Positions 3,616 to 17,980 are shown, counted from the first letter of the stretch. The stretch is DNA of 17,980 nucleotides from an archaeon (GCA_035291025.1 DATDTB010000097.1:1-17980), one strand, 5' to 3'. A program made the numbers and translations. Notes: generated from the letters alone by a model not told the origin.

Positions 3616-3730
3616 GGTATCGGCCATAGCAACACGGTCACACCCGGTCACTTTCCGAACCCGGAAGTTAAGCGTGTTGCGCGCTTGATTGGTACTGCAC
3701 TCTGTGCGGGAAGGTCGGCGTGCTGCTACC
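3616..3730 (+). rRNA. rrf: 5S ribosomal RNA, unlinked to 16S/23S within this window
   Basis: Contains CGGCCATAGC...CACACCCGGTC.CTTTCCGAACCCGGAAGTTAAGC...GGTACTGC...GGGAA, matching the conserved archaeal 5S core. Helix I forms between GGTATCGGC (3616..3624) and GCTGCTACC (3722..3730). A T-run (acttttt) follows. Ends are accurate to about +/-3 nt. Confidence 0.85.
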
Positions 3731-3785
3731 ACTTTTTCAACACCCACTTTCCCATTTACTTTTTAGCAAGCCTTTTGCGCGAGCC

Positions 3786-4280
3786 CTAAAGCCTTTCGAT
3801 TTCTTTTAAGAGTGCAGCGAATACTACTGGCTTGACGTTCATTCCCGCCTTTACTATGTTTAAAAGTACGTCTTTGGCTTTTTCCTTGTTCAAGGTTTTT
3901 CCCTTCACTGCAGTCAAAACCAGCGAAGTCACCCACAGGCATTCAACGCCGTGAGCTCTCGCGACCTCAATCAAGTAGGCGTCGTTTGACACGAGCTGTT
4001 GTTTTTCAGCCTTGGCCAGCAAGACAAGTGAGGCGTCCGCTGCCTCCAGGCCTTCTGCTTTCGCGAGCTTTTTCGCCTCAACCGGGTTTGTTTCCCTTAC
4101 CTTCACCCAGTCGCTGAAGGCTTCCTCGAGTTCTCTCGTCCCGGGCTTTCCAGCGCCTTGAACCACGCATTCGTTGAAAACTTCCCTCGACGCAATGACT
4201 TCCTTGAACAAGCCTTTCAAGAGAAACAAGGCACCTGCCTTGGACAACGGAATCAAGGCAGAAGAATCTACGACAACCAT
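3786..4280 (-). CDS. PIN-domain nuclease toxin (COG2405 / DUF3368-like)
   Basis: Starting at the ATG at 4280, it reads MVVVDSSALIPLSKAGALFLLKGLFKEVIASREVFNEC...GLEAADASLVLLA...LVSNDAYLIEVARAHGVECLWVTSLVL. This is the acidic-residue pattern of DUF3368-type PIN proteins. It lies 7 nt downstream of a UPF0175-like ORF. The 50 extra residues in the track ORF (to 4430) overlap that antitoxin and look spurious. Confidence 0.75.
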   Translation of the reverse strand: MVVVDSSALIPLSKAGALFLLKGLFKEVIASREVFNECVVQGAGKPGTRELEEAFSDWVKVRETNPVEAKKLAKAEGLEAADASLVLLAKAEKQQLVSNDAYLIEVARAHGVECLWVTSLVLTAVKGKTLNKEKAKDVLLNIVKAGMNVKPVVFAALLKEIERL

Positions 4281-4287
4281 GCAGGGC

Positions 4288-4572
4288 TCACTGCGTTCGT
4301 GCCTCTCTTGCCAGCTCCTCCAAGGAGTAACCCGCGTCAATTCCCTCCCTTGAGGCTTCTTCCAGTATTTCGCGGTAGGAAACGCCTGCAAGGCGGGCGG
4401 CGGTTCTAATGGTGGCTTTTTTCTGGGCAAGCAGTTCCAGCGCCTTTTCCAGGCGCCACGCCTTTATCCCTTTTTCCAGGAGCTTCCTCACTATTTCGGC
4501 CTTCCCGCTTTTTTCCTTTTCCTCTATTTCCCAAGGCCCGGGCGTCCTCTTCCGGAATCCTTGCAGTGACAA
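4288..4572 (-). CDS. UPF0175 (COG2886)-like antitoxin, probably frameshifted; a better N-terminus lies in another frame starting at a GTG at 4588
   Basis: The C-terminal part, ALELLAQKKATIRTAARLAGVSYREILEEASREGID, resembles the UPF0175 HTH. This frame has no ATG (the track start is TTG). A second frame from GTG 4588 encodes MVEVEVVTARIPEEDARALG, the usual UPF0175 N-terminus. The two frames join cleanly if one G is skipped near 4533..4538. Confidence 0.6.
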   Translation of the reverse strand: MSLQGFRKRTPGPWEIEEKEKSGKAEIVRKLLEKGIKAWRLEKALELLAQKKATIRTAARLAGVSYREILEEASREGIDAGYSLEELAREARTQ

Positions 4573-4681: not shown

Positions 4682-5131
4682 CTAAGCGGTCTTGATTGAG
4701 CGCGCGTCGTTAGTTCCGCGTATTTCGACCTTGTAGCCGTCGTTCAAGTCCACGCCCGTGCTCAAGATGTCCCTGGAGTCAACGCGGAGGTTCACGTCAA
4801 GAACGTTTTTGTCATTGTAGTTGCACACAGTGTTGGGCCGCGAGTTCACGTCTATTTTGTGGGTGTTGCTCACGGAAATCGTGACGTACACTGTTTGGAA
4901 GTCGGTCTGGTCGCCCTTGCACCTAACGTAAATGACTTCGTTTTTGACGTCAATTGAGTCAATCTCTATCTGGGCCTGCGCGCTCACGCCGCTCGTGTCA
5001 ACCGACTCCAGCGACGCAGTAAGGACTCCGGAACCCCAGAAGTAGGCTATGAGGGTTGCTATTATCGCGACCGCTATCATTGCCACTGACGAAATGATTG
5101 GCGAGACTCCCTTACTTGTCAGCCGGGTCAT
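4682..5131 (-). CDS. Archaeal type IV pilin-like protein with class III signal peptide (pilin 1)
   Basis: MTRLTSKG|VSPIISSVAMIAVAIIATLIAYFW has a short basic leader, then KG-VSPII, then a hydrophobic helix, as in the archaeal pilin N-terminal domain (PF07790-like). The C-terminus ...VEIRGTNDARSIKTA is related to pilins 2-4. Confidence 0.8.
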   Translation of the reverse strand: MTRLTSKGVSPIISSVAMIAVAIIATLIAYFWGSGVLTASLESVDTSGVSAQAQIEIDSIDVKNEVIYVRCKGDQTDFQTVYVTISVSNTHKIDVNSRPNTVCNYNDKNVLDVNLRVDSRDILSTGVDLNDGYKVEIRGTNDARSIKTA

Positions 5132-5154
5132 TAGAAACAGGAAATGAGCAATGG

Positions 5155-5164
5155 AATATAAAAA
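5155..5164 (-). promoter_or_regulatory. TATA-like box upstream of pilin 1
   Basis: The minus strand reads CCTTTTTATATTCC. Its proximal edge is about 24 nt from the ATG at 5131, which implies a leaderless or very short-leader transcript. Confidence 0.45.
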
Positions 5165-5187
5165 GGAAAAGCCTGCAAGTCAAGCGC

Positions 5188-5685
5188 CTAAACCTGCTTG
5201 ACCGCTTCCGCGTTGTTCGTTCCAACAATGCGCACGACGTGTCCCACGTTCACGTCAAAGAAAACGTTGTTTGACATGTTGCTGTCCCTTAAGTTCCACG
5301 AAAGTATTCCCTGGCCGCCGGCGCTGCAGGCGTGGAGTGCGCCCCAACGCAAGTTCCCGTCAGGGTGGTCGGCGTTGTTGACGTCCAGCCTCGTGACGTT
5401 TCCCGGGCTCGTTGTGACGTATATTTGTTGTATGGTGGTTATGTCTCCCTTGCACCGCAGCGTTATAACATTGTTTCCAGCGTCAATGTTTTCGATTGCA
5501 ATTGTCGCAGTCTGTGTCACTTCCCCAGTGTCCGAAGACGCAATTATTCCTGACAGTAGTCCAATTCCCCATAGGTATGCGATTACTGCGGCGGCTACTG
5601 CGACTGCAACCATTAAAACAACGGCTATCACTGGCGAGAAACCGCGGCTCGTCCTTATTTGAAAAGCCTTCATGAAAAAAGCCAT
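5188..5685 (-). CDS. Archaeal type IV pilin-like protein (pilin 2)
   Basis: MAFFMKAFQIRTSRG|FSPVIAVVLMVAVAVAAAVIAYLWGIGLLSGIIA... The ATG at 5685 overlaps the TAA of pilin 3 by 1 nt. An alternative ATG lies at 5673 (MKAFQ...). Confidence 0.8.
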   Translation of the reverse strand: MAFFMKAFQIRTSRGFSPVIAVVLMVAVAVAAAVIAYLWGIGLLSGIIASSDTGEVTQTATIAIENIDAGNNVITLRCKGDITTIQQIYVTTSPGNVTRLDVNNADHPDGNLRWGALHACSAGGQGILSWNLRDSNMSNNVFFDVNVGHVVRIVGTNNAEAVKQV

Positions 5686-6131
5686 TAAACTGTCTTGATT
5701 GCTTCCGCGTTGTTCGTTCCAACAATGCGCACAACGAACCCAACGTTTAAGTCGAAGTTGGCGTCAGTGTCGCTGCTCCCGCTTCCCAGACCCATGTTTA
5801 TGTCTAAAAGCGAGTTAGAACCGGCTGTGCATGACTCGCTGCTCCCACTCAGCACTCCGACTCTCTTGATTGTACCCGGGCTTGTCGTGACGTAAATGTC
5901 TGTTACTGTCGTGGCGTCTCCCTTGCACCTCACGAATATCCTGTTTTCGTCAGCGTTGATTGCCTCGATTGAAATTGCCGCCGTTCCCGTTATTTGTCCA
6001 GTGTCTGACCCGGCAATTATTCCTGACAATAATCCAATGCCCCACAGGTATGCGATGACTGCAGCTGCGACTGCCACTGCAACCATCAAAACTACAGCTA
6101 TTACCGGCGAAAAGCCCCGTTGGTTAAGCAT
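5685..6131 (-). CDS. Archaeal type IV pilin-like protein (pilin 3)
   Basis: MLNQRG|FSPVIAVVLMVAVAVAAAVIAYLWGIGLLSGIIAGSDTGQITGTAA..., with RCKGD...C.AG and the C-terminal VVRIVGTNNAEAIKTV. Confidence 0.85.
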   Translation of the reverse strand: MLNQRGFSPVIAVVLMVAVAVAAAVIAYLWGIGLLSGIIAGSDTGQITGTAAISIEAINADENRIFVRCKGDATTVTDIYVTTSPGTIKRVGVLSGSSESCTAGSNSLLDINMGLGSGSSDTDANFDLNVGFVVRIVGTNNAEAIKTV

Positions 6132-6160
6132 TATGCGTTCTTCCCCTTGCTTTCCTTTTT

Positions 6161-6586
6161 TTAGGCTGTCTTTATTGCTTCGGCGTTGTTACTGCCTACA
6201 ACCCTTACAACGTGACCCACGTTAACGTCAAACGTTCCACCGCTTAGCTTCGTGTCATCCAAGTAAACAAGCGCGGTGCCGCCTGCCGTGCAACTCACTG
6301 TGCTAGAGGCGTTGAACCTTTCAATGTTGCCAGGGCTCCGGGTTACGTACACGTCCGTTATTTCCGTTATGTCGCCCTTGCACCTTATTAACACGTTGTT
6401 GTCCGTGGAGCTTATCGCCTCAATGGACACTGCCGCGGTCCCAGTTATTTGTCCAGTGTCGCTTCCGGCGATTATTCCTGATAGTAGTCCAATGCCCCAT
6501 AGGTATGCGATTACTGCGGCGGCTACTGCGACTGCAACCATTAGCACTACTGCTATTACTGGCGAGAATCCTTTTTGGTCAAGCAT
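6161..6586 (-). CDS. Archaeal type IV pilin-like protein (pilin 4)
   Basis: From the ATG at 6586 it reads MLDQKG|FSPVIAVVLMVAVAVAAAVIAYLWGIGLLSGIIAGSDTGQITGTAA... The track ORF extends to an ATG at 6682, adding 32 Lys-rich residues that are atypical for a class III signal peptide. A palindromic TTTATAAA at 6650..6657 lies inside that extension. Confidence 0.75.
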   Translation of the reverse strand: MLDQKGFSPVIAVVLMVAVAVAAAVIAYLWGIGLLSGIIAGSDTGQITGTAAVSIEAISSTDNNVLIRCKGDITEITDVYVTRSPGNIERFNASSTVSCTAGGTALVYLDDTKLSGGTFDVNVGHVVRVVGSNNAEAIKTA

Positions 6587-6768
6587 GACAATTACCTCTT
6601 TTGCCCTCTTTGCGAGCCTTTTTTTGCCTGCCTTTAAAGACTTTTTCTCTTTATAAAGCTTTTTTCCAGCGGGGTTTTGCATTTAAGTTGACTGCTTTCC
6701 TTCCAGTAACCCGCGTTCTCCAACTTTGGGAGCGCGGCAGGTTTCACCTAAATTTTTGGAGCCTTCCG

Positions 6769-7245
6769 TTAAAACTCGCGAATTATTGACGTCAAAGTCA
6801 CTGTCTTCCTGCCGTTCTTGCTCGTGACAGTTATCTCCGTCGTCGTGCGGTCGGAGACGTCTATGTCGTCAATGTTCGAGCAGTTGGTGCCGTTGAACAC
6901 GTAAGGCGGCGCGTCCTTTAGCATCTCGATCCTGTTCCCGGAGGCGTCCTTGTCGCAGGCGAGCTGGCCGCGCACGAACACGGAGACTTCTTTGACGTCG
7001 TGGTCCCCGTTGTTTTTCACGAACAAGGCGCGAATGCGGTCGCCCGCCGTGTTGAGTTGGGCGCTTTGGATGTCCAAGTCGTCCGGGTTTTGCGCCTCAG
7101 TAACAGTCTTTTCGCCGCGGCTTATTGTCTTGGTCTGTATTCCGGAGACCCAGAAGTACGCTATGACGATGAACGTGACGGCAATGGCCGCCAACAACAC
7201 CGCGGAAATGGTTGGGCTGACTCCTTTCTGGCCGTGAATCTTCAT
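6769..7245 (-). CDS. Archaeal type IV pilin-like protein, divergent family member (pilin 5)
   Basis: From the ATG at 7245 it reads MKIHGQKG|VSPTISAVLLAAIAVTFIVIAYFWVSG... The 62 upstream residues in the track ORF (to 7431) are read through the left end of the IS element, which is repeated at 301..549, so they are not part of the gene. Confidence 0.8.
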   Translation of the reverse strand: MKIHGQKGVSPTISAVLLAAIAVTFIVIAYFWVSGIQTKTISRGEKTVTEAQNPDDLDIQSAQLNTAGDRIRALFVKNNGDHDVKEVSVFVRGQLACDKDASGNRIEMLKDAPPYVFNGTNCSNIDDIDVSDRTTTEITVTSKNGRKTVTLTSIIREF

Positions 7246-7267
7246 TCCAGTTAACACGTCCTTTTTC

Positions 7268-7284
7268 GTTTTAAAGCTTTCGAG
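7268..7284 (-). promoter_or_regulatory. BRE/TATA-like element upstream of pilin 5, at or overlapping the IS left-end junction
   Basis: The minus strand reads CGAAAGC-TTTAAAAC. The TATA-like part ends about 23 nt upstream of the ATG at 7245. Confidence 0.4.
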
Positions 7285-7292
7285 CGAGAAAT

Positions 7293-7312
7293 CCCACTGC
7301 TTTGGCTGTGGG
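7293..7312 (+). repeat. IS left-end subterminal hairpin CCCAC-tgctttggct-GTGGG
   Basis: Read directly from the sequence. Stem sequence and loop length match the right-end hairpin. Confidence 0.65.
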
Positions 7313-7472
7313 TTGAATTGTGGTTCTGTTTCTATTTTGAACGAGTCGTGTTGGCAATTTTTTCCAAGTCCAGTGTTGACCCCGTTGCCAGTGCTTGTTT
7401 GCGCGTGTTGGTTTTTAGGGGGCACTGGCAATCCGCACCGTTGCGGGTTTATATGCTTGGGAAACGCGTCTT

Positions 7473-8627
7473 ATGGCGTTCAATGGTGGTATGGGAGTGC
7501 TTCGAGTTTTCAAGTTCCGCTTGTATCCCAGCAGGAGGCAGTTGTTGGAGTTGGATGGCCAGCGTTTTCTGGCCAAGCAGTTGTGGAATGAGTTGCTTGC
7601 AGCCAGCAAGCAACACTATAAGGACTTTGGTTTTTTCTTGTCTAGGAACTCAATGCAGTTAATGTGCAAGAACTATGGATTGTACTCGCAAGCACAGCAG
7701 TCAGTCGTGTTCAACCTTGAACTTGCAGTGAAGCGTTTTTGTAAGTTGAAAAAGCAAGGAAAACGTGTTGGCTTTCCGCGTTTTAAGTCAGTTGACAGAG
7801 TGAAGTCACTGCACTACCCCCAGTTTGGTTTCAGGCTCGAGGGCAAGAAGTTGCGCGTTAACCCTTTTGGCTTGATTCCAGTCAAGCACCACCGCACGAT
7901 TGAGGGTGGAATAAAAAATCTCACTCTAAAGCGAGAGGCTAGTGGCAAGTGGTTTGCCTGCTTTGTAGTTGAACTCCCCGAAAAACCAGCTCCAGTTCAT
8001 GGTGGTAAGAAGGTAGGCATTGACTTGGGTTTGGAAAAGTTCGCCACTTTATCGAATGGCTTTGTTGTGGCGAACCCGAGGCACTTGAGGAAGCGCGAGG
8101 AAAAACTAGTTTTAGAGCAACGCAGGCTGTCTAGGAAAAAACGCGGTTCTAGGAATCGTGGGAGGCAGAGGCTGAAAGTGGCTAGGGTTTACGAACGAGT
8201 CAGTAATTCTAGGAAAGACTTCTTGCACAAGACCAGTCACTGGCTGGTTAATTCTTTTAGCTTGATTGCATTGGAGGACTTGCGCGTTGCGAGTATGGTG
8301 CAAAACAAGCAGTTATCAAAATCAATTAGTGACGTTTCTTGGAGTTCGTTCACGGGCATGTTGTACTACAAAGCGGTGGAAGCTGGTAGTACTGTAGTGT
8401 TCGTGGACGCCAAGAACACGACACGGCAGTGTTCGGATTGTGGTTTGATGGTGGCAAAGGCGCTTAGTGAAAGGGTTCACGAGTGCACTTGCGGCTTGGT
8501 GTTGGACCGTGACTTGAATGCTGCCAGGAACATACTCATTAGAGCTACCCCTGGAATAGGGGGAAGTCAAGCTCTCCGAGACGAGTCAAGTGGAGTCGTT
8601 GGTGAAGAGAGAAGCCCACAACTTTAG
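7473..8627 (+). CDS. tnpB: TnpB (IS200/IS605 OrfB) RNA-guided endonuclease, full length with an intact RuvC triad and zinc finger
   Basis: 384 aa. The N-terminus LRVFKFRLYPSRRQ is typical of TnpB. RuvC-I is VGIDLGLEKF, RuvC-II is LIALEDL, the zinc finger is CSDCG...HECTCG, and RuvC-III is DRDLNAARNI. Confidence 0.9.
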   Translation: MAFNGGMGVLRVFKFRLYPSRRQLLELDGQRFLAKQLWNELLAASKQHYKDFGFFLSRNSMQLMCKNYGLYSQAQQSVVFNLELAVKRFCKLKKQGKRVGFPRFKSVDRVKSLHYPQFGFRLEGKKLRVNPFGLIPVKHHRTIEGGIKNLTLKREASGKWFACFVVELPEKPAPVHGGKKVGIDLGLEKFATLSNGFVVANPRHLRKREEKLVLEQRRLSRKKRGSRNRGRQRLKVARVYERVSNSRKDFLHKTSHWLVNSFSLIALEDLRVASMVQNKQLSKSISDVSWSSFTGMLYYKAVEAGSTVVFVDAKNTTRQCSDCGLMVAKALSERVHECTCGLVLDRDLNAARNILIRATPGIGGSQALRDESSGVVGEERSPQL

Positions 8628-8634
8628 TCGTGGG
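8615..8634 (+). repeat. IS right-end terminal hairpin CCCAC-aactttagtc-GTGGG (overlaps the tnpB stop codon)
   Basis: Read directly from the sequence. It has the same 5-bp stem and 10-nt loop length as 7293..7312. Confidence 0.65.
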
Positions 8635-8638
8635 TAGT

Positions 8639-10630
8639 TCACGCCTTTTCTATTACCACGTCGTTGTTTTGTTTTTTAAAGGAAAACCTTTCCCCCAGCG
8701 CCGCCGAAACTTCGCCAGCGGACTGCATTGCCTCTCTTAAGTCAACGTCTATTTCCCTGCACACTTCGCTCAGGGTCGTTTTCTCGGGGTCGGCCATTTC
8801 CAAATAACGAATCACCATTTTGGCGACTTTTTGCGGCTTGGGCGCCTTTTCCTGCTGTTTCCTCGCGCCTTGAATTGCGTCAAATGCCAAGTCAAACTTT
8901 GCCTCTGTTTTCTGGATTTCTTTTTCGAAGGCCTGCCTTTGCCCAACGCCTCTCTTGGCGTCTTCCCATTCATCCCTTAATTGCTCGACTCGTTCTCTTA
9001 GGTTTGAGTCCTTTCCCTGCCTGGGTCCCGTCTTCGACAATAGTTCGCCGAGGCGCGAGCTCACTTCAGTTAGCCTCGCGCCGTGTTCCGTGTTTTGCTG
9101 TCTTTCATTCAAGTAAACGTGCCCTTCCAGCGCGCCTACCTTGGTTCCAATGGTTTCAATTGCCTCGGAAATGCTTTTCCTGACGTCCGGGTTGCTTTGC
9201 GCGCGTTCGGCGACGCTTTCGAGTTGTTGCCGAAGGGTTTCGACTTCGTTTTTCACGGCTTCCACTTTCAAGGGTTCTCTTTTGAGCTTCAACGCGCTTA
9301 CCTCTCTTCCCAGCGCCGTGGCCTTCCTGTCAACTTCTTCCAAGTCCTTTTTCAGCACTCCCAATGTAAAGTTTTCAAACCCGGAAAGCTCTGCCTTGAC
9401 TGAGTCGATTTTCTTGCTCAGCGAGGAAAACTCTTCAGGGCTAACTGTTGCCGCGAGCGAATTCACTTTTTCACTTAGCGAGTTCAGCTCGTCAAACACG
9501 GGCTTGACGTTTGTCTCCTTCCTGTTCTTGAGCATTACGACCTCGCCCCTGAGCGCGTCCAAGTCCGTGTGAATCCCTTTCACGTCCAGGGCTACGTCGC
9601 GTTTTACCTTTGCCTCGAAGTCCTTCAAGTTTTCCTGCAACAAGTCCAGCTTGTAAACCACTTTCCCGAACTCGTCTTCCATTTTCTTGCCCGCGCCTTT
9701 TTCGACTGCCTTCATTAGCTCTTCAATGCGTTCCTCCAAGGCCCTTACTTCTGTCTTCATCAAGTGGACGTCAACGGCGGTCTCGCCTGCCGCGCCCGCC
9801 TTCTTGTCCAGTTTTTCCAGGGCCTTGTGCAAGCCGTCCAGTCCCGCGTTCAACACCTCTATTTCCTCCTGGACCTTGGAGTCAGCCGGCTTTTCCAGCC
9901 TGGAGGAAAGCGCGCGGGTGACTTGTTCGATGGTGCTTTCCTTGGCGATTGACTCCTTGGCCGCCTGCTCCAACGCGCTGGCTTTAGACAAAAGCGTCCT
10001 CAGCGAGAACTGGGCCTCGTTTATCAACCCCGAGAATTCCTGGATTTTCATGCTCGCCTTGTGCACTGACTCCGAGAGCGACTCGTACTTGGTTGGCAGG
10101 TCTCCCAGCGCAGCGACGTTGTTGTTAACTTGCTGGAGTCCCGCGTTCAACGAATCAAGTTCTTTCAGCTTTGACGTTATCACGTTCTTGAGGCTGTTTT
10201 CAATGCTTTGCTGGTCTGACCTGAGCGCGGTGACCTTGTTGGACAGTTCCACGTAGTCCTTCTTCAAGTCCAGCATTGTTTTCTGGACTTCCTCCGAGAG
10301 ACGCGTTGAGTCCTTTGTTTCCTTTATTTCGCCGGAGAGCCTTTCCAGCCTGTTGAGTATGTTTATTTCGGACTCGGAAATTGTGTGGAGGCTTTGCTCG
10401 GTCGTGTCGCTTATTGACTCCCTTGAAGCATCTTCCAGCGCCGCCACCAACGAGTTCACTTTGCGGGAGAGCTCGCGGTTTTCCTTGACCACCAAAAGCA
10501 GGAGCTCCTTCACCTCGGTCAACCCCGAGCCGCCGCTGGTTTCCTCCATGGCGTGCTCGTTCAAGAGCTTTTCCAGCTTCAACCGCGTGGACTCGAGTTC
10601 GACGTCCCCGCTGAATTCCTTTCCTGCCAT
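8639..10630 (-). CDS. Long coiled-coil protein B (~663 aa) with a C-terminal winged-helix-like module; function unknown
   Basis: The sequence is E/K/L/S-rich and heptad-like throughout, with no TM segment and no Walker A motif. The C-terminal ~60 aa (PQKVAKMVIRYLEMADPEKTTLSEVCREIDVDLREAMQSAGEVSAALGERFSFKKQNNDVVIEKA) align with the C-terminus of the upstream ORF. The ATG is at 10630; the track start at 10642 is a TTG. Confidence 0.7.
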   Translation of the reverse strand: MAGKEFSGDVELESTRLKLEKLLNEHAMEETSGGSGLTEVKELLLLVVKENRELSRKVNSLVAALEDASRESISDTTEQSLHTISESEINILNRLERLSGEIKETKDSTRLSEEVQKTMLDLKKDYVELSNKVTALRSDQQSIENSLKNVITSKLKELDSLNAGLQQVNNNVAALGDLPTKYESLSESVHKASMKIQEFSGLINEAQFSLRTLLSKASALEQAAKESIAKESTIEQVTRALSSRLEKPADSKVQEEIEVLNAGLDGLHKALEKLDKKAGAAGETAVDVHLMKTEVRALEERIEELMKAVEKGAGKKMEDEFGKVVYKLDLLQENLKDFEAKVKRDVALDVKGIHTDLDALRGEVVMLKNRKETNVKPVFDELNSLSEKVNSLAATVSPEEFSSLSKKIDSVKAELSGFENFTLGVLKKDLEEVDRKATALGREVSALKLKREPLKVEAVKNEVETLRQQLESVAERAQSNPDVRKSISEAIETIGTKVGALEGHVYLNERQQNTEHGARLTEVSSRLGELLSKTGPRQGKDSNLRERVEQLRDEWEDAKRGVGQRQAFEKEIQKTEAKFDLAFDAIQGARKQQEKAPKPQKVAKMVIRYLEMADPEKTTLSEVCREIDVDLREAMQSAGEVSAALGERFSFKKQNNDVVIEKA

Positions 10631-10658
10631 TTCTTGTCCCAACCCATTCCCTGGCTTT

Positions 10659-12746
10659 TCAGCGCTTTTCGATTATTATGTCCTTGCCCTGCAGCCTGGA
10701 GAGCACGTCCGTGTTCCGAGTGTAATAGTTTTCCCCGAGCGCCTTTAGTATCTTGTCAATGTTGTCGGAGGCGAACTTGTAGTCCACCCCGAAAACCCTG
10801 CACATTTCCTTCAAGTTGAACTGTTTTTCGCTTATGCCCTGGAAGTTGGTCACGTAGTCCTTTATTTTTGCGGCAACCTTTTCCGGGTCCAGTGCCACCC
10901 TTACCTCGGAGGCGGCCTTCAAGGACTCTGGGGCCTGGCTCAGCGCGGCCTTCCTTGAGGCAATTTCCAGGTTTTTCAGCACGTCCTGCGCCGTCACCCC
11001 TGAAGTGAGTTCCTTTATTTGCGCGGCCTGCGACGCCACAACAGGAGTCCCGGCCTTTTTCTCGATTTTCGCGGAAACCTCTGCTATTTTCGAGTACTCT
11101 TTTTCCAATGGCTTTTGGGCTTCGCGTATTTCGCGTATTTTTTCAACCAAGTCCTGCATTTTCTCCCTGGAATCTTCGAGTTTTTCGTGGTGTTCCTCGC
11201 TCACGACCGCGACGTCGGCGAAGTCAATCCTTCCGTAAAGCTTTTCCAACTCCCCCAGTTCGACTTCCTGTTCGTCGAATGACCCTTGGATTTTCCTTTC
11301 TTTTTCGTCCTTGCGCGCCACCAACTGGTTGGGCGCGGAAAGGGTGGCTATTGCGATGTTGTCGCCCAGCGTTTCGGCTTGTTCTTGAACGCGTTCAATC
11401 AAGTGCTCCCCAGCAATGTTTTTTGAGGAAAGGGCTTTGGCGTGTTCTGTCATTGCTTCAACGTGTCCCGCGACTTCGTGGTGCAGCACGTGGCCTGCGT
11501 CAATAGGCTTCCTGAGCTCTTCGTGTACTTCCTTCAAGGCCTTGTGCGCTTCCCCCTCAGTCGTTTCCCCCTTGGCCAGTTCCTTGTGCACTTGCTCGAG
11601 CTTTTCGCGGGCGGCTAGCGCGCCTTGAACGGCTTCCTGAATTTTTTCCGGGGTCGCTGACTCCATTTTGGCATGCGCGGCGGAAACGCTTTCGCTTAAT
11701 TTTTCAATTCGGTCCTCGAAGTGTGGCGCCTTCCTCGCTGCAGCCTTTGAGGCTTCAACGCCTAGCTTTATTGCTTTTTCCCGCAAGCGCTGCTCCTTGG
11801 AGCCGACAACTGGCTTTCCCACAAGCGTTGCCTTCACGCCCATGACTTCTAGTTCGCGTTTTGCGTCCTTGGCGCCCTTCCCGAGTTTTTCCATTTCCAG
11901 CGCGAACGACTCGCCCGAGGGAAGCTTGTGCACCTTGACGTAAAGGCTTGAAACGCGTCTTTCAACGTCGTCGAGCTTGTGCGCGAATTCCACGACGAGC
12001 TTCGCGTCCGGGTCCGCGTATTTTTTCATCTTGTCGCGCAAAATGAACAACGCCTCGGAGGCGGTTTCGAGTTCTCGCTTGAAGTTCTTGGTGTTGGAGT
12101 CCTCGATTTCCACGAGCAGTTTTCGGGCTTCGCCGGAGTCCTTGATGGCTTGGACGGCTTCCCTTGGGAGCTTTGCGTTGTCTTTCCGCAGCTGTGAAAC
12201 GAATCCCTCGAGTTTTTCATGCAAGACCGAGTACTCGTCCTTGAGCATTGACAAGTTGACTTCTTCGTCCTTCCTCGCCTTCCTTAGCTCGGAGTACAAG
12301 TCTTCCATGGCGCCTTGGAGGTTTTTGACTTCGCGCTTTATTCTCTCCTCTTCGCCTTCCAAGAGCTCGCTGAGGCGCTTTTGCAGGCCGTCAAGCTTCT
12401 TGAGCCCGTCCTCGTCCGCTTGCCTGGCGTCCTTTAACCTTTCAAGCATGACGACGTTTGACTCAGCTATCGCCTTCAATAGTTCCTCTGTCTTGTCGTC
12501 CTTGACTTCGGAAGCCGCTTCCTCGAACTGCTTCAACAGCAAGTCGAACCTGTGCGACAACTTCTTGGTCTGCCGCGCGGACTCCAGCAACAAGTCCTCG
12601 TAAATCGCCAGGCGTTCGTCCTTTGACTCTTCGCCTTCCCCTGCCGAAAGCCTGCGCCTTCCCTTTTTCTTGCCCAGCGAAGGCCGTTCGAGTTCCTCTT
12701 CTTCCTGGCCGCGCAGCCCGTCCAATTCCTCTTCGTCCAATGGCAT
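10659..12746 (-). CDS. Long coiled-coil protein A (695 aa) with a C-terminal winged-helix-like module; function unknown
   Basis: ATG start. An acidic/basic N-terminal tail is followed by ~600 aa of heptad-like helix. The C-terminus reads PEKVAAKIKDYVTNFQGISEKQFNLKEMCRVFGVDYKFASDNIDKILKALGENYYTRNTDVLSRLQGKDIIIEKR. There is no NTPase motif and no TM segment. Confidence 0.7.
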   Translation of the reverse strand: MPLDEEELDGLRGQEEEELERPSLGKKKGRRRLSAGEGEESKDERLAIYEDLLLESARQTKKLSHRFDLLLKQFEEAASEVKDDKTEELLKAIAESNVVMLERLKDARQADEDGLKKLDGLQKRLSELLEGEEERIKREVKNLQGAMEDLYSELRKARKDEEVNLSMLKDEYSVLHEKLEGFVSQLRKDNAKLPREAVQAIKDSGEARKLLVEIEDSNTKNFKRELETASEALFILRDKMKKYADPDAKLVVEFAHKLDDVERRVSSLYVKVHKLPSGESFALEMEKLGKGAKDAKRELEVMGVKATLVGKPVVGSKEQRLREKAIKLGVEASKAAARKAPHFEDRIEKLSESVSAAHAKMESATPEKIQEAVQGALAAREKLEQVHKELAKGETTEGEAHKALKEVHEELRKPIDAGHVLHHEVAGHVEAMTEHAKALSSKNIAGEHLIERVQEQAETLGDNIAIATLSAPNQLVARKDEKERKIQGSFDEQEVELGELEKLYGRIDFADVAVVSEEHHEKLEDSREKMQDLVEKIREIREAQKPLEKEYSKIAEVSAKIEKKAGTPVVASQAAQIKELTSGVTAQDVLKNLEIASRKAALSQAPESLKAASEVRVALDPEKVAAKIKDYVTNFQGISEKQFNLKEMCRVFGVDYKFASDNIDKILKALGENYYTRNTDVLSRLQGKDIIIEKR

Positions 12747-12823
12747 TGGCTTTAACCCTTCTTCCTTTCCATTTGCAATGCGCCCGGCTTTCTGGCTTCG
12801 CTGGGGCGCTGGAATTGCAAGCC

Positions 12824-12851
12824 TTTATAAAACAACTTTGGCTTTTTAAAA
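12824..12851. promoter_or_regulatory. Two A/T palindromic TATA-like boxes in the divergent intergenic region
   Basis: TTTATAAAA (12824..12832) and TTTTTAAAA (12843..12851) lie between the divergently transcribed genes starting at 12746 (-) and 12945 (+). They are the only A/T-rich elements in a 198-nt GC-rich spacer. Confidence 0.45.
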
Positions 12852-12944
12852 CATACCGCCTCTTAGTACCGACGCCTCCGCGCGCTGGGCGGAAACCGCG
12901 CACTGCAAGCCCTCGAGAAACGCGCAACCGGTGCTTTTCCTGCC

Positions 12945-13937
12945 ATGAACAAGTCGTTGTTTTTCCTGCTTGCCCTGAGTTTCCTGGCCCCTTTCGCGGC
13001 CGCCCAAGGACAGCAGCGCCTTTCCTTTCTCTCATATGTAATATCGGTCGAGCCATTGAACGGCGCGTCACTGGAAAGGATTGAAGCGATGGTCAGGAAT
13101 GACTCAACGGAGTTAGTTGAACGCCTTGACTTTTCCTTCGGTCCCCTCGTCCCGGGAACGCTTAAGGCGTCAGTGGACAGCGAGGCCGCCGCGGTGGAGG
13201 AAGGCGCGGAATCGTTCTCAGTCCTCCTACCAGCGCCCTTGGGTAGAAACCAGCAGGCAAGGGTTTCGATGGAGTTCTCCAAGGAAGGGCTGCTGGAAGA
13301 GTTGGAGGACTCGCGCCTACTCAGCCTCTCCTTTACCTCGCCCGGCGAGTTGTCCAATTTTTACATAAAGGTCTTGCTGCCGGAGGGCGCGTTCATTCCA
13401 TTAGAGCAGCCCGGAACCCTTTCAACGGCCTTCGTTTCACCCGAACCCTCGGGTTTCACTACTGACGGCCAGAAAATAACCGTTTTCTGGGACGCTGACC
13501 TGGCGCCTGGCGAGAGTTTCCCGATTTACCTGCGCTTTTCCCAAGCCGCAAAACCAAGCGTGGTGGAGTTTGACTACTTGCTGTTGTTGTCCTTTATTGC
13601 CGCGCTGGCGCTCTTTTTTGCAGGGATTTACTCAAGGCGCTTTTCCGGAACCCCAACCAAGGCAGTTTCACGCGCCCCCAAAACAACCCCTAGCAAGGAA
13701 TTTGGGCGCAGGGAAAAAATAGTCAAGGGCTACTTCGAGTTATTGCAGGACAGCGAGAAAAGCGTTGTTTCCTTCCTACGCAACGGCCAAAAAACCCAAG
13801 CCGAGTTGCTTGAGTTAACGGGCTTTTCCAAGGCCAAGCTCTCGCGAATCCTTGCGTCAATGGAGCAACGAAACGTGGTGGAACGAAGGCTAGTTGGAAG
13901 GACTAACGTGGTCAAACTCAAAAACAAGGCGCTTTAA
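12945..13937 (+). CDS. Membrane-anchored winged-helix transcriptional regulator (COG2512-like): signal peptide, extracellular domain, one TM segment, cytoplasmic wHTH
   Basis: The signal peptide is MNKSLFFLLALSFLAPFAAA|QG. A ~190-aa extracytoplasmic region follows, then the TM segment YLLLLSFIAALALFFAGIY. The C-terminus LLQDSEKSVVSFLRNGQKTQAELLELTGFSKAKLSRILASMEQRNVVERRLVGRTNVVKL is MarR/ArsR-like wHTH. Confidence 0.75.
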   Translation: MNKSLFFLLALSFLAPFAAAQGQQRLSFLSYVISVEPLNGASLERIEAMVRNDSTELVERLDFSFGPLVPGTLKASVDSEAAAVEEGAESFSVLLPAPLGRNQQARVSMEFSKEGLLEELEDSRLLSLSFTSPGELSNFYIKVLLPEGAFIPLEQPGTLSTAFVSPEPSGFTTDGQKITVFWDADLAPGESFPIYLRFSQAAKPSVVEFDYLLLLSFIAALALFFAGIYSRRFSGTPTKAVSRAPKTTPSKEFGRREKIVKGYFELLQDSEKSVVSFLRNGQKTQAELLELTGFSKAKLSRILASMEQRNVVERRLVGRTNVVKLKNKAL

Positions 13938-17086: not shown

Positions 17087-17980
17087 GTGTTTTTTGTCTT
17101 GGGCTTCAAGTTTGACAAGGCGTTCTTGAGGAACTCGCTTTACCTCCTCTTGCTGAGCGGCTTCATTTTCACCTTGGGCTTCGGCGTGCGAGCGGACATG
17201 CTCAAGTACGACTACATCTTCGAGTTCGACTCTTATTACAGGGCGCGCATAGTCAAGTTGCTGCTGCAAAACGACGGATTACTGCCGGCGCAGGACCCGG
17301 GAAACTTCGCGCCGGGCCTTGACACGGGGCACGCCAGGCTTGTTGAACTAATTGGGTACAACTTGTACAAGCTTCTTTATGGCAGCGAGTACGACCAGGG
17401 AAAGTGGTTGTTGGACAAGCTGGCCCTGGCCAAGCTGCTCCCAGCAGTCTTTGGCGCTCTCACTGCTGTGGCCTTGTTTTTCTTCATGCGCGAGGTTTCG
17501 GGAAACTTTGGCGGCGTGACCGCGGGAATTCTCGCCGCGGTCGTTCCAGCGTTCGTTTACCGGACAATGGGCGGCTGGTTCGAAGACCACTCGCTTGGGT
17601 TCTTGTGGATGGTGGTGGGCTTTGCCTTCCTTGCCCGGGCCATGAAGTCGGAAAAAGTGAGCTCTTCAGTGCTCTTCAACTCGCTGGCAGCGGTGTCGTT
17701 CTTTGTGTTGATGTTTTACACGTGGGCCGCTTACATATTGATTCCGCCAATCGTTGCCATTTACTTCGTGTTGCTGACGTATTCGGATGCGGTGAAGCCC
17801 TCGCTGCAGCAGTTCTTCAGTGAAAAGCCAGTGAGAAAGAAGTACTTCTTTTTCATCTTGTCAGTGTTCGTCCTCTTGGCCACTATTCCAATGCTAGTGT
17901 GGGTTAACCCTTCAGGCTTTCCCGACGGCGGGGCAAAGAATTCCTTTGGCTTGTTCCAGTGGGGCGTTGAAGCCGCAATA
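17087..17980 (+). CDS. aglB: Oligosaccharyltransferase AglB/STT3, N-terminal ~298 codons; continues beyond the window end
   Basis: This frame is open from 17069 to the window end and is not in the ORF track. Its translation is ...LLLLSGFIFTLGFGVRADMLKYDYIFEFDSYYRARIV...VFGALTAVALFFFMREVSG...AFVYRTMGGWFEDHSLGFLWMVVGFAFL... The multi-TM layout, the D-x-YY-R first-loop motif and the G..ED H motif are typical of STT3/AglB. The start is uncertain (GTG 17087 or TTG 17099); the first ATG at 17198 would delete TM1. Confidence 0.75.
   Translation, partial: MFFVLGFKFDKAFLRNSLYLLLLSGFIFTLGFGVRADMLKYDYIFEFDSYYRARIVKLLLQNDGLLPAQDPGNFAPGLDTGHARLVELIGYNLYKLLYGSEYDQGKWLLDKLALAKLLPAVFGALTAVALFFFMREVSGNFGGVTAGILAAVVPAFVYRTMGGWFEDHSLGFLWMVVGFAFLARAMKSEKVSSSVLFNSLAAVSFFVLMFYTWAAYILIPPIVAIYFVLLTYSDAVKPSLQQFFSEKPVRKKYFFFILSVFVLLATIPMLVWVNPSGFPDGGAKNSFGLFQWGVEAAI

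Follow-up and report, generated by a model that had tools for sequence, protein, structure and literature searches.

Two long coiled-coil genes lie in tandem beside an array of pilin-like genes in the genome of a groundwater DPANN archaeon (Iainarchaeota). The locus raises the question of what kind of protein they encode and whether the products could serve the neighbouring surface structure. The analysis covered a 17,980-nucleotide stretch of DNA, referred to below as the window.

The gene pair

The initial annotation described two neighbouring minus-strand genes 28 nt apart, and open reading frames with this arrangement are present in the window:

10659-12746, minus strand: gene A (HLD81512.1), 695 aa, 78 kDa, pI 5.7, ATG start (ORF, translation and gene calls)
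8639-10630, minus strand: gene B (HLD81511.1), 663 aa, 74 kDa, pI 5.4 (ORF and gene calls)
10631-10658, minus strand: A-B spacer of 28 nt (sequence)

The longest ORF of gene B (8639-10642, minus strand) begins at a TTG codon. The likelier start is the ATG at 10630, which yields 663 aa and hence the 28-nt gap. Independent gene calls gave the same lengths of 695 aa for A and 663 aa for B. No terminator-like site was found on the minus strand of the spacer, and A and B are probably co-transcribed.

According to the secondary structure of an AlphaFold2 (AF2) model, A consists of a disordered charged head (aa 1-41), a helical rod (about aa 42-602) and a winged-helix-like tail (aa 619-695). B follows the same head, rod and tail plan, with a heptad signal stronger than that of A. 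The head of A carries a basic patch, GKKKGRRR, which is missing from B.

Properties of the rods

Both proteins are rich in E, K, L and A, contain 6-8% serine and are acidic, with net charges of -18 and -17. Helical periodicity peaks at 3.5-3.6 residues in A and B (z = 8-10), and the heptad a/d positions are enriched over shuffled sequences by 6 SD in A and 14 SD in B. Describing these helices as uninterrupted was nevertheless an overstatement. A contains 14 Pro and 35 Gly and B contains 10 Pro and 33 Gly, and in a low-confidence AF2 model (pLDDT 49.7 for full-length A) Pro/Gly breaks divide the rod of A into some 12 helices, 14-159 aa long.

Neither an NTPase head nor a membrane segment was expected from the initial annotation, and this view held. 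Scanning A and B for Walker A and Walker B patterns gave no match, the 19-residue Kyte-Doolittle hydropathy maximum of 0.7 indicated no transmembrane (TM) segment, and profile matches never reached a head domain. No signal peptide or class III pilin signal was found in either sequence; together with the lack of a TM segment, this favors a cytoplasmic location. A head, a segmented coiled-coil rod and a tail, with no NTPase, make up an architecture of the intermediate-filament-like type.

Paralogy of A and B

Two collinear blocks relate A to B, one being the C-terminal tail and the other lying near the N-terminus:

12417-12626, minus strand: aa 41-110 of A, N-terminal helical block shared with B (BLASTP, shuffle test, alignment)
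10331-10537, minus strand: aa 32-100 of B, N-terminal helical block shared with A (BLASTP, shuffle test, alignment)
10662-10892, minus strand: C-terminal winged-helix-like module of A, aa 619-695 (AF2 tail model, Foldseek, motif positions)
8642-8842, minus strand: C-terminal winged-helix-like module of B, aa 597-663 (alignment, shuffle test, motif positions)

The alignment of the tails, proposed earlier from the sequence alone, proved significant. They share 29-32% identity (BLASTP E = 1e-7), and their local alignment score of 76 compares with 23.4 ± 4.3 in 5000 shuffles (maximum 49; Gumbel p of about 6e-8). The quoted motifs P-KVA, CR..VD, ALGE and IEK were all found. For the N-terminal blocks the identity is 30% (BLASTP E = 2e-5) and the local alignment score is 86, against 27 ± 5 for shuffles (p of about 2e-7). 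Cross-controls for the shuffle test were null. Judged from their sequences, A and B are true paralogs. The N-terminal block had been overlooked in the initial annotation; a domain search with it returned no known domain.

The C-terminal tail

Modeling of the A tail (AF2; pLDDT 75, pTM 0.63) gave an H-b-H-H-b-b order of elements at residues 19-32, 40-42, 43-50, 54-68, 72-75 and 89-92 of the model, with pLDDT of about 80-88. This corresponds to H1, b1, H2, H3 (ending in ALGE), b2, a 13-aa wing loop and b3 (IIEK), and thus to the winged-helix topology a1-b1-a2-a3-b2-wing-b3 expected of a compact 60-80-aa domain. The order is identical in the full-length A model. The only cysteine of A, C649, is located in H2, and that of B, C624, is likewise in the tail. 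By alignment to the A model, the tail of B would adopt the same fold with a shorter wing loop.

When the tail was submitted to Foldseek, winged-helix domains made up almost the whole of the top 50 PDB matches, with probabilities up to 0.98 (up to 0.98-1.0 over the Foldseek lists) and, for small targets, target-normalized TM-scores of 0.59-0.67 at an rmsd of about 3 Å. Yet no match reached E ≤ 1e-3, the best values being 0.12 (PDB) and 0.049 (BFVD), so that the fold is supported while no family can be assigned. Named wHTH families (MarR, ArsR/HTH_20, Rep3 WH1, DUF7343) gave no significant match, the hints being below their cutoffs (HTH_20, E = 0.04; Rep3_N WH1, E = 0.08), a profile search of the PDB with the tail gave nothing relevant, and hhalign of the tail against the neighbouring DUF7343 wHTH returned a probability of 0.2%. 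The resemblance to a winged helix noted in the initial annotation therefore stands at the level of the fold only.

The two tails differ in charge, with a pI of 8.7 (basic) in A and 5.4 in B. H3 has no conserved basic residues and a net charge of +1 in A and -1 in B. Residues common to both tails are mostly core or acidic.

The neighbourhood

The neighbours listed in the initial annotation, namely five pilin-like genes, a membrane-anchored regulator, a surface protein (CW_binding_2) and AglB, are all present. The features bearing on the gene pair are:

4682-7245, minus strand: five archaeal type IV pilin-like genes with class III signal-peptide-like N-termini (TIGR02537)
7301-8634, plus strand: IS200/605-type element with a TnpB ORF at 7473-8627 (Pfam OrfB_IS605 and TNB domains)
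12823-12853, no strand assigned: paired TATA-like boxes, CTTTATAAAACA and CTTTTTAAAACA, in the intergenic stretch that separates A from the divergent regulator gene
12945-13937, plus strand: membrane-anchored wHTH protein, 330 aa, divergent from A (Pfam DUF7343, E = 1.6e-13)

A, B and all five pilin genes are on the minus strand, with the pilins downstream of B; TIGR02537 scores above cutoff in three of the five. The TnpB element between B and the pilin array had escaped notice. Its ends were set by a second copy of 84% identity, and the hairpin at its right end (8615-8634) leaves 4 nt to the stop codon of B. With the element taken out, about 30-100 nt would separate this stop codon from the likely ATG of the first pilin gene at 7245. 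The first pilin gene is preceded by a TATA-like box of its own, so co-transcription with A-B need not hold.

On the other side, the 330-aa protein combines a signal peptide and an ectodomain with a single TM segment, and its C-terminal domain is a wHTH of the DUF7343/MarR type; it is a candidate regulator of A-B, and the boxes CTTTATAAAACA and CTTTTTAAAACA are candidate promoters. The CW_binding_2 protein and AglB/STT3 (E = 4e-25) are located on this side as well. The window contains no gene for a pilus ATPase (CpaF), a platform (TadC) or a prepilin peptidase, and in every assembly the contig breaks off within AglB.

Proposed role

These features are best explained if A and B are cytoplasmic paralogs specific to their lineage. 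Each would combine a short charged head and the conserved N-terminal block with a segmented, amphipathic coiled-coil rod (about 560 aa) and, at the C-terminus, a winged-helix knob of some 70 aa. A role as a cytoplasmic rod scaffold for the adjoining pilus/envelope module is possible, and is the one that we tentatively favor. Co-directionality with the pilins once the insertion element is removed, together with the published coiled-coil proteins of other DPANN archaea, makes this role plausible.

From the same features we infer an oligomeric state, a partner, a link to the pilus and a mode of regulation. The A and B chains would run parallel and in register, an A/B heterodimer being the likeliest form, with a fold-back geometry or a homodimer as alternatives. 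The near-equal rod lengths and the tandem layout count in favor of the overall model. Parallel pairing would place two N-terminal blocks at one end and two winged-helix knobs at the other. The knobs may serve as docking modules, for which a protein partner would be likelier than DNA, since the acidic proteins, an H3 lacking conserved basic residues and the low pI of the B tail favor docking over DNA binding. The rod could then act as a scaffold or adaptor for the surface module of pilins, S-layer-like protein and AglB, the divergent membrane-anchored wHTH protein may control A-B, and the pair would be analogous to the coiled-coil proteins that other DPANN archaea encode in their type IV pilus loci.

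Alternative roles

Searches of billions of proteins returned no homologs beyond the same clonal population, and with a single clonal population as carrier the adjacency of A/B to the pilins could be coincidental. It would be so if A and B were generic intermediate-filament-like elements of the crescentin, FilP or Scy kind, forming filaments for shape or support without a functional link to the pili, which is rather unlikely. The head, segmented rod and globular tail fit this role, the matching lengths of the paralogs recall obligate heterodimer filament systems, and aa 120-176 of B score above the gathering threshold of Pfam NPV_P10 (PF05531; 42.4 versus 29.8 bits), P10 being a fibril-forming coiled-coil protein. 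However, A lacks this match, which in B spans 57 residues of heptad sequence. The family model, too, describes a coiled coil, and baculoviral context is missing; the similarity was treated as compositional or heptad-based rather than as homology. Homology to known filament formers was not found, and an 80-nm rod would cross much of an Iainarchaeota cell, such cells being very small. Extremely improbable is a descent from SMC, Rad50 or ASRP-type proteins that lost their heads and retained the coiled-coil arms alone. B does give weak profile matches to ASRP (43.3 bits against an NCBIfam cutoff of 300), SMC (38.5 against 567) and Rad50 (36.3 against 700), and A to SMC (15.6 against 729), with further sub-threshold matches to LmuB, JetC and SbcC for B and to JetC for A. 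These scores are nevertheless far under the curated cutoffs, and the matches fall on the arms, never on the heads (JetC 735-1053 of 1365, SbcC 463-775 of 967). A Foldseek search with the full-length model gave no head-like match, no signature motif, hinge or zinc hook is present, and what A and B conserve at their ends is a helical block on one side and a winged helix on the other, not half-heads. With arms-only, sub-cutoff matches and no Walker motifs, membership of A and B in the SMC, Rad50 or ASRP families is effectively refuted.

It is unlikely that A and B tether or organize DNA or the chromosome, with DNA-binding knobs and bridging or anchoring rods, or take part in pilus-linked DNA handling; models would be B. 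subtilis RacA (HTH plus coiled coil) or DNA-bridging rods of the SYCP3 type. DNA binding is the main role of the winged-helix fold, and many of the top Foldseek matches are the DNA-binding domains of MarR, ArsR and CodY proteins. The basic tail and the GKKKGRRR patch of A point the same way, as do weak SYCP3/Cor1 matches to A57-144 (PF04803, Pfam E = 4.9e-4; PDB E = 0.007). Against this, the patch is not in B, whose tail is acidic, H3 has no conserved basic residues, and the proteins carry net charges of about -17 to -18. The Cor1 match lies below its gathering threshold (20.8 versus 32.1 bits) and in heptad sequence, and protein-binding winged helices are common (ESCRT-II, PCI, UFL1/DDRGK1), those of kleisins included. 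Export by a non-classical route as a host-contact or adhesion rod, sigma-1-like and shown on or delivered by the pilus, would suit the DPANN lifestyle and a published sigma-1-like interpretation (PMC11291902), but is very unlikely here. The phage tail-fibre and tape-measure matches in its favor are weak, sub-threshold coiled-coil noise, export or membrane signals (signal peptide, class III pilin signal, TM segment) are absent, and a winged-helix knob is not known as a receptor-binding head.

Comparison with known systems

As a putative cytoplasmic scaffold of a pilus/envelope module, A/B can be set beside several known systems. With the arms of SMC, Rad50 and ASRP the pair shares long amphipathic helices and the weak profile similarity of B, but not the ATPase head, hinge or zinc hook. 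Crescentin, FilP and Scy resemble A/B in having a head, a segmented rod and a tail without a nucleotide-binding domain, and in being lineage-specific and known by architecture alone; they are bacterial and unrelated in sequence, and their tails are not winged helices. A small wH/HTH knob on an extended helix, used for docking or anchoring, is also seen in DDRGK1/UFL1, PCI proteins, the C-terminal wH of kleisins and RacA. UFL1/DDRGK1 is among the best Foldseek matches of the tail (probability 0.98). The likeness to these eukaryotic and bacterial proteins, whose partners are unrelated, nevertheless goes no further than the fold (10-17% identity, E of at least 0.1), and the HTH of RacA is N-terminal and basic.

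Closer in context is the coiled-coil protein arCOG07564 in haloarchaeal type IV pilus loci of subclade 4F, for which H. pylori HP0958/FlgZ was proposed as an analogue (Makarova et al. 2016, PMC4858521). Like A/B by description, it is an intracellular coiled coil in an archaeal pilus locus with an S-layer-like protein, and a regulatory or assembly subunit has been proposed. Its lineage is a different one, and HP0958, a short antiparallel hairpin carrying a Zn ribbon, differs from a 560-aa rod that ends in a winged helix.

Conserved type IV pilus loci that encode coiled-coil proteins (CCPs) have already been published for DPANN archaea (Hamm et al. 2024, PMC11291902). They were found through nucleoporin-like or sigma-1-like HHpred matches and reported from cluster 2 DPANN and Undinarchaeota, in loci with a CpaF ATPase and a TadC platform (PMC11291902). 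The A/B architecture was not recognised as a named archaeal family in the initial annotation, and the Pfam, NCBIfam and PDB searches agree, but with these precedents it is less unprecedented than implied. By description the two sets are alike: one or two long coiled-coil proteins beside type IV pilus genes in DPANN, fast-evolving, annotated as hypothetical and with no assigned function. In this window five pilin genes follow B directly on its strand, and the contigs end at AglB. The A/B host is an Iainarchaeote, in contrast, the window holds no CpaF or TadC, Pfam and PDB sequence searches with A/B gave no nucleoporin or sigma-1 match, and no winged-helix tail has been described for the CCPs. 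A bolder and quite unlikely extension is that A/B found a new class of archaeal cytoskeletal or adaptor proteins that work independently of nucleotides. In this class an obligate A/B heterodimeric rod would dock, through paired winged-helix knobs that each hold the only Cys of their protein, on the cytoplasmic base of a host-contact apparatus resembling a type IV pilus. In Iainarchaeota, a cluster 1 DPANN lineage, the pair would then be the counterpart of the cluster 2 pilus-locus coiled-coil proteins, and a rod-shaped cytoplasmic partner would be a general, fast-evolving part of DPANN pili.

Tandem paralogous genes A and B

Genes A and B are tandem paralogs that encode cytoplasmic proteins with a head, a helical rod and a tail of winged-helix fold, and these proteins are not SMC-like. 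The open reading frames and independent gene calls agreed with the initial annotation, which had described two adjacent minus-strand genes.

10659-12746, minus strand: A, 695 aa; open reading frame with which independent gene calls agree; GenBank hypothetical protein HLD81512.1
8639-10642 from TTG, or 8639-10630 from the likely ATG, minus strand: B, 663 aa; open reading frame and gene calls; hypothetical protein HLD81511.1

B likely starts at the ATG at 10630; the protein then has 663 aa and, as annotated, the spacer between the genes is 28 nt. The GenBank locus tags of the pair are VJA40_05920/05925.

BLASTP aligned A51-104 with B42-95 at 35% identity (E = 2e-5). This N-terminal block (N-block; A residues 41-110, B residues 32-100) is a second conserved region that had not been noticed in the initial annotation. 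The C-terminal tails, for which similarity had been claimed, were 29% identical over 77 residues when compared alone (E = 1e-7). Local alignment scores were also assessed against shuffled sequences with Gumbel p values, using 5000 shuffles for the tails. The tails scored 76 compared with 23.4 ± 4.3 for the shuffles (maximum 49 in 5000; p ~ 6e-8), confirming the similarity, and the N-blocks scored 86 compared with 27.1 ± 5.0 (p ~ 2e-7). The cross-comparison of tail with N-block was null in this test, and the middle rods of A and B showed marginal similarity (p ~ 0.03).

Each protein has one cysteine, at the equivalent position in the CR motif of the tail (C649 in A, C624 in B). Tandem repeats of note were absent from the DNA of A and B, and strong internal repeats were not found in the proteins. 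Given the two collinear conserved ends, the near-equal length and the tandem position, duplication is the clear explanation for A and B as judged from their sequences.

Fold of the C-terminal tail

Residues 603-695 of A were modelled with AF2, the tail of B being the sole additional alignment row. The model had a pLDDT of 75 and a pTM of 0.63, with the folded part at about 80-88. The predicted elements follow the order H1, b1, H2, H3, b2, wing loop, b3, which is the topology of a canonical winged helix, and the same topology recurs in the full-length AF2 model of A.

Foldseek searches with the tail model against PDB and BFVD gave nothing at E ≤ 1e-3 (best 0.12 and 0.049). The top matches were nearly all winged-helix proteins, namely CodY, MarR and ArsR-family regulators (HlyU, CadC, CzrA), and further winged-helix matches were to UFL1/DDRGK1 (probability 0.98), ribosomal eS25 and a proteasome PCI subunit. 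Target-normalised TM-scores were 0.59 for SSV1 F-112 and 0.67 for Z-alpha (rmsd 2.9 Å). The full-length model gave winged-helix matches only, and an ATPase-like fold was absent from them. The resemblance to a winged helix noted initially is supported by the AF2 topology and by these near-exclusive matches, all with E > 1e-3.

Sequence-family matches of the tail were weak and not significant (HTH_20, E = 0.04; Rep3_N WH1, E = 0.08). A PDB profile search with the tail returned nothing relevant, and hhalign detected no relationship between the tail and the DUF7343 winged HTH of the neighboring membrane-anchored regulator. With winged-helix topology and Foldseek lists and no sequence-family match, the winged-helix fold of the tail is therefore supported, and membership of a winged-helix family is not.

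Properties of the rod and head

A and B are acidic, with pI values of 5.7 and 5.4 and net charges of -18 and -17, and E, K, L and A are abundant in both. Hydrophobicity along the rods is strongly periodic at 3.5-3.6 residues (z = 8-10 relative to shuffles in both proteins), and heptad a/d positions are enriched over shuffles by 6 SD in A and 14 SD in B. The earlier description of the rod as uninterrupted did not hold. Proline and glycine are scattered along the whole length (14 Pro and 35 Gly in A; 10 Pro and 33 Gly in B), and the full-length AF2 model of A, which is of low confidence (pLDDT 49.7), gives about 12 helices of 14-159 aa over residues 42-602, with short breaks between them.

Walker A and Walker B patterns were sought in A and B and neither was present. 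No hydrophobic segment was detected (highest 19-residue hydropathy 0.7), which means that A and B lack both a TM helix and a signal peptide. The proteins thus lack NTPase motifs and TM segments, as had been proposed, and their assignment as membrane proteins or as secreted proteins with a signal peptide was rejected. A basic patch, GKKKGRRR, interrupts the acidic, disordered head of A at residues 25-32 (about 12651-12674, minus strand). It is absent in B and could be a contact site for nucleic acid or membrane.

Comparison with known families

Matches of A and B in Pfam, NCBIfam, PADLOC and PHROG were sub-threshold, with the exception of NPV_P10, and fell in the coiled-coil arms of the profiles. 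Scores were 43 bits for ASRP and 38 bits for SMC, compared with cutoffs of 300 and 567. The JetC match covered profile positions 735-1053 of 1365 and the SbcC match 463-775 of 967, while LmuB and a tape-measure family also gave sub-threshold arm-region matches. Matches of A to SYCP3/Cor1 were below cutoff. The sole match above a curated cutoff, Pfam NPV_P10 on B120-176 (42.4 compared with 29.8 bits), is treated as non-homologous: it covers 57 aa of heptad sequence, the model is itself a coiled coil, and A has no such match. Assignment as a component of a phage or defence system was rejected; the PADLOC and PHROG matches are coiled-coil noise.

The N-block matched no family, and PDB sequence and profile searches with the full proteins, tails and N-blocks gave nothing significant. 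The initial annotation had recognized no named family and had considered cryptic SMC/Rad50 heads as the finding that would speak against it. Because the profile matches are sub-threshold and restricted to arms, and the N-block is unmatched, such heads are rejected and the pair remains outside the named families.

Search for relatives

Word-index protein searches with A, B and the tail alignment returned only a partial self-match of B. An exhaustive phmmer search with A against 1.84 billion cluster representatives found only two fragments of A. Both types of search are insensitive to relatives as diverged as B, since A and B themselves score only 3.2 bits after bias correction. As a caution, this correction hides proteins like A and B from large-scale homology searches. 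The word-index search lacked a self-match of A because the representative of its 90%-identity cluster is a junk peptide of 32 aa that unrelated Flavonifractor peptides share; through this artefact of clustering, representative-based searches miss full-length A.

In scans of viral contigs and in tblastn against phages and plasmids, the sole match was a coiled-coil one of 20% identity on a Burkholderia plasmid. A pattern scan of GTDB species representatives with the regulator found no relatives. The genome-collection scan with TBP returned one Iainarchaeum contig, which ends 0.5 kb after TBP, and one distant Undinarchaeote; the metagenome scan with TBP returned distant TBPs only (≤42% identity) and no syntenic relatives. 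HMMs of the N-block and tail detected no further members among all ORFs of the fetched loci.

Several groundwater metagenome assemblies contain contigs identical to the window. SNPs were compared across assemblies for signs of selection, and the differences were contig-end artefacts only; the population carrying A and B is clonal across assemblies. A and B are an orphan family seen in this one groundwater population.

Genomic neighborhood

The features flanking A and B are as follows.

3616-3731, plus strand: isolated gene for 5S rRNA (67 bits in Rfam), directly 3' of TBP
3786-4430, minus strand: PIN/DUF3368 with UPF0175 in an adjacent small ORF, located after the 5S/TBP genes and before the pilin array
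4682-7245, minus strand: array of five archaeal type IV pilin-like paralogs with class III signal-peptide-like N-termini, downstream of B on the same strand
about 7301-8634, plus strand: IS200/605-type TnpB-only element between B and the pilins, its ends set by a second copy (84% identity)
12945-13937, plus strand: regulator, 330 aa; signal peptide, about 200 aa of ectodomain, a single TM and, on the cytoplasmic side, a C-terminal winged HTH of DUF7343/MarR type
17087-17980, plus strand: N-terminal part of AglB/STT3 (Pfam, E = 4e-25)

Other genes in the window, which is an archaeal contig, are TBP, L21e, Rpb4/RpoF, DUF655 and KsgA. Its TBP shares 72% identity with the TBP of a Candidatus Iainarchaeum MAG, which places the organism among the Iainarchaeota (Diapherotrites, DPANN). 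RNA genes were sought in the A/B region and none was found. PIN/DUF3368 and UPF0175 form a probable toxin-antitoxin pair.

Three of the five pilin-like genes exceed the TIGR02537 cutoff. Three paralogs have nearly identical signal peptides and hydrophobic N-termini, and the segments 5540-5640 and 6468-6568 (101 nt each) are 92% identical; the similarity within the array suggests recent duplication or gene conversion. The first pilin ORF is annotated at 6769-7431 (minus strand, 220 aa), its initial 62 codons coming from the left end of the IS and the adjacent spacer. The true start is likely the ATG at 7245 (MKIHGQKG/VSPT); about 25-30 nt before it lies the TATA-like sequence TTTAAAA. With the IS removed, B and the pilins are co-directional and separated by about 30-100 nt. 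Having a TATA-like box of its own, the first pilin does not require co-transcription with A and B.

The right-end hairpin of the TnpB element (8615-8634) ends 4 nt from the stop codon of B, and the TnpB stop codon lies in the hairpin loop. The second copy (84-88% identity) adjoins KsgA, at 2-471 of the window (minus strand) and in the fetched locus L006 at 17209-18481. Several assemblies of the population break inside the element.

The regulator is a one-component-like membrane protein, divergent from A across a 198-nt spacer. Within this spacer, at 12823-12853, lie the TATA-like boxes CTTTATAAAACA and CTTTTTAAAACA, which are almost identical and stand 19 nt apart. Beyond the regulator lie a 729-aa CW_binding_2 protein and then AglB/STT3. 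Every public assembly of the population stops about 0.9 kb into AglB/STT3, and this common break point suggests that the sequence there is a repeat or varies between strains. The window contains neither a pilus ATPase gene nor a platform gene, and a search for longer contigs extending past AglB found none.

Possible role of A and B

On the best, though tentative, reading, A and B might act in the cytoplasm as a scaffold or adaptor that serves the pilus and envelope module next to them. The two proteins would pair in parallel into a rod, and the paired winged-helix knobs at their C-termini would dock a partner. The divergent membrane-anchored regulator possibly controls A and B.

One alternative is a DNA tether that would act through the winged helix. 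H3 of a winged helix is usually the DNA-recognition helix. In these tails H3 is devoid of conserved basic residues (net charge +1 in A, -1 in B), and the pI of 5.4 of the B tail also speaks against a tether, whereas that of the A tail, 8.7, is in its favor. The charge pattern leans toward protein docking over DNA binding, and a tether appears distinctly unlikely. An intermediate-filament-like cytoskeleton unconnected to pili is unlikely. That A and B form an exported rod for contact with a host is very improbable. Derivation from an SMC protein that has lost its head is scarcely credible, as the profile matches lie far below cutoffs and in the arms only.

The analysis at once yields a clean annotation of A and B as paralogous head-rod-winged-helix proteins that are not SMC-like. 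As an orphan family in one population, A and B hold nothing yet surprising to a specialist. DPANN archaea depend on cell-cell contact, and unexplained coiled-coil proteins recur in their type IV pilus loci; if A and B are a functional counterpart of these, the association would extend to Iainarchaeota. The handle for finding partners would then be the conserved knob, with its single conserved cysteine, together with the conserved N-block.

One or two coiled-coil proteins occur in conserved type IV pilus loci (CpaF, TadC) of cluster 2 DPANN and Undinarchaeota (Hamm et al. 2024, PMC11291902); Ca. Nanohaloarchaeum antarcticus expresses them, and the authors read them as sigma-1-like. The intracellular coiled-coil protein arCOG07564, which was compared to H. 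pylori HP0958, is found in pilus loci of haloarchaea together with genes for S-layer-like proteins (Makarova et al. 2016, PMC4858521). Given these precedents, an arrangement in which a long coiled-coil protein is encoded next to pilus genes has been seen in archaea before. Set against their published descriptions, A and B differ from these proteins in lineage, in forming a tandem paralog pair and in possessing a winged-helix tail.
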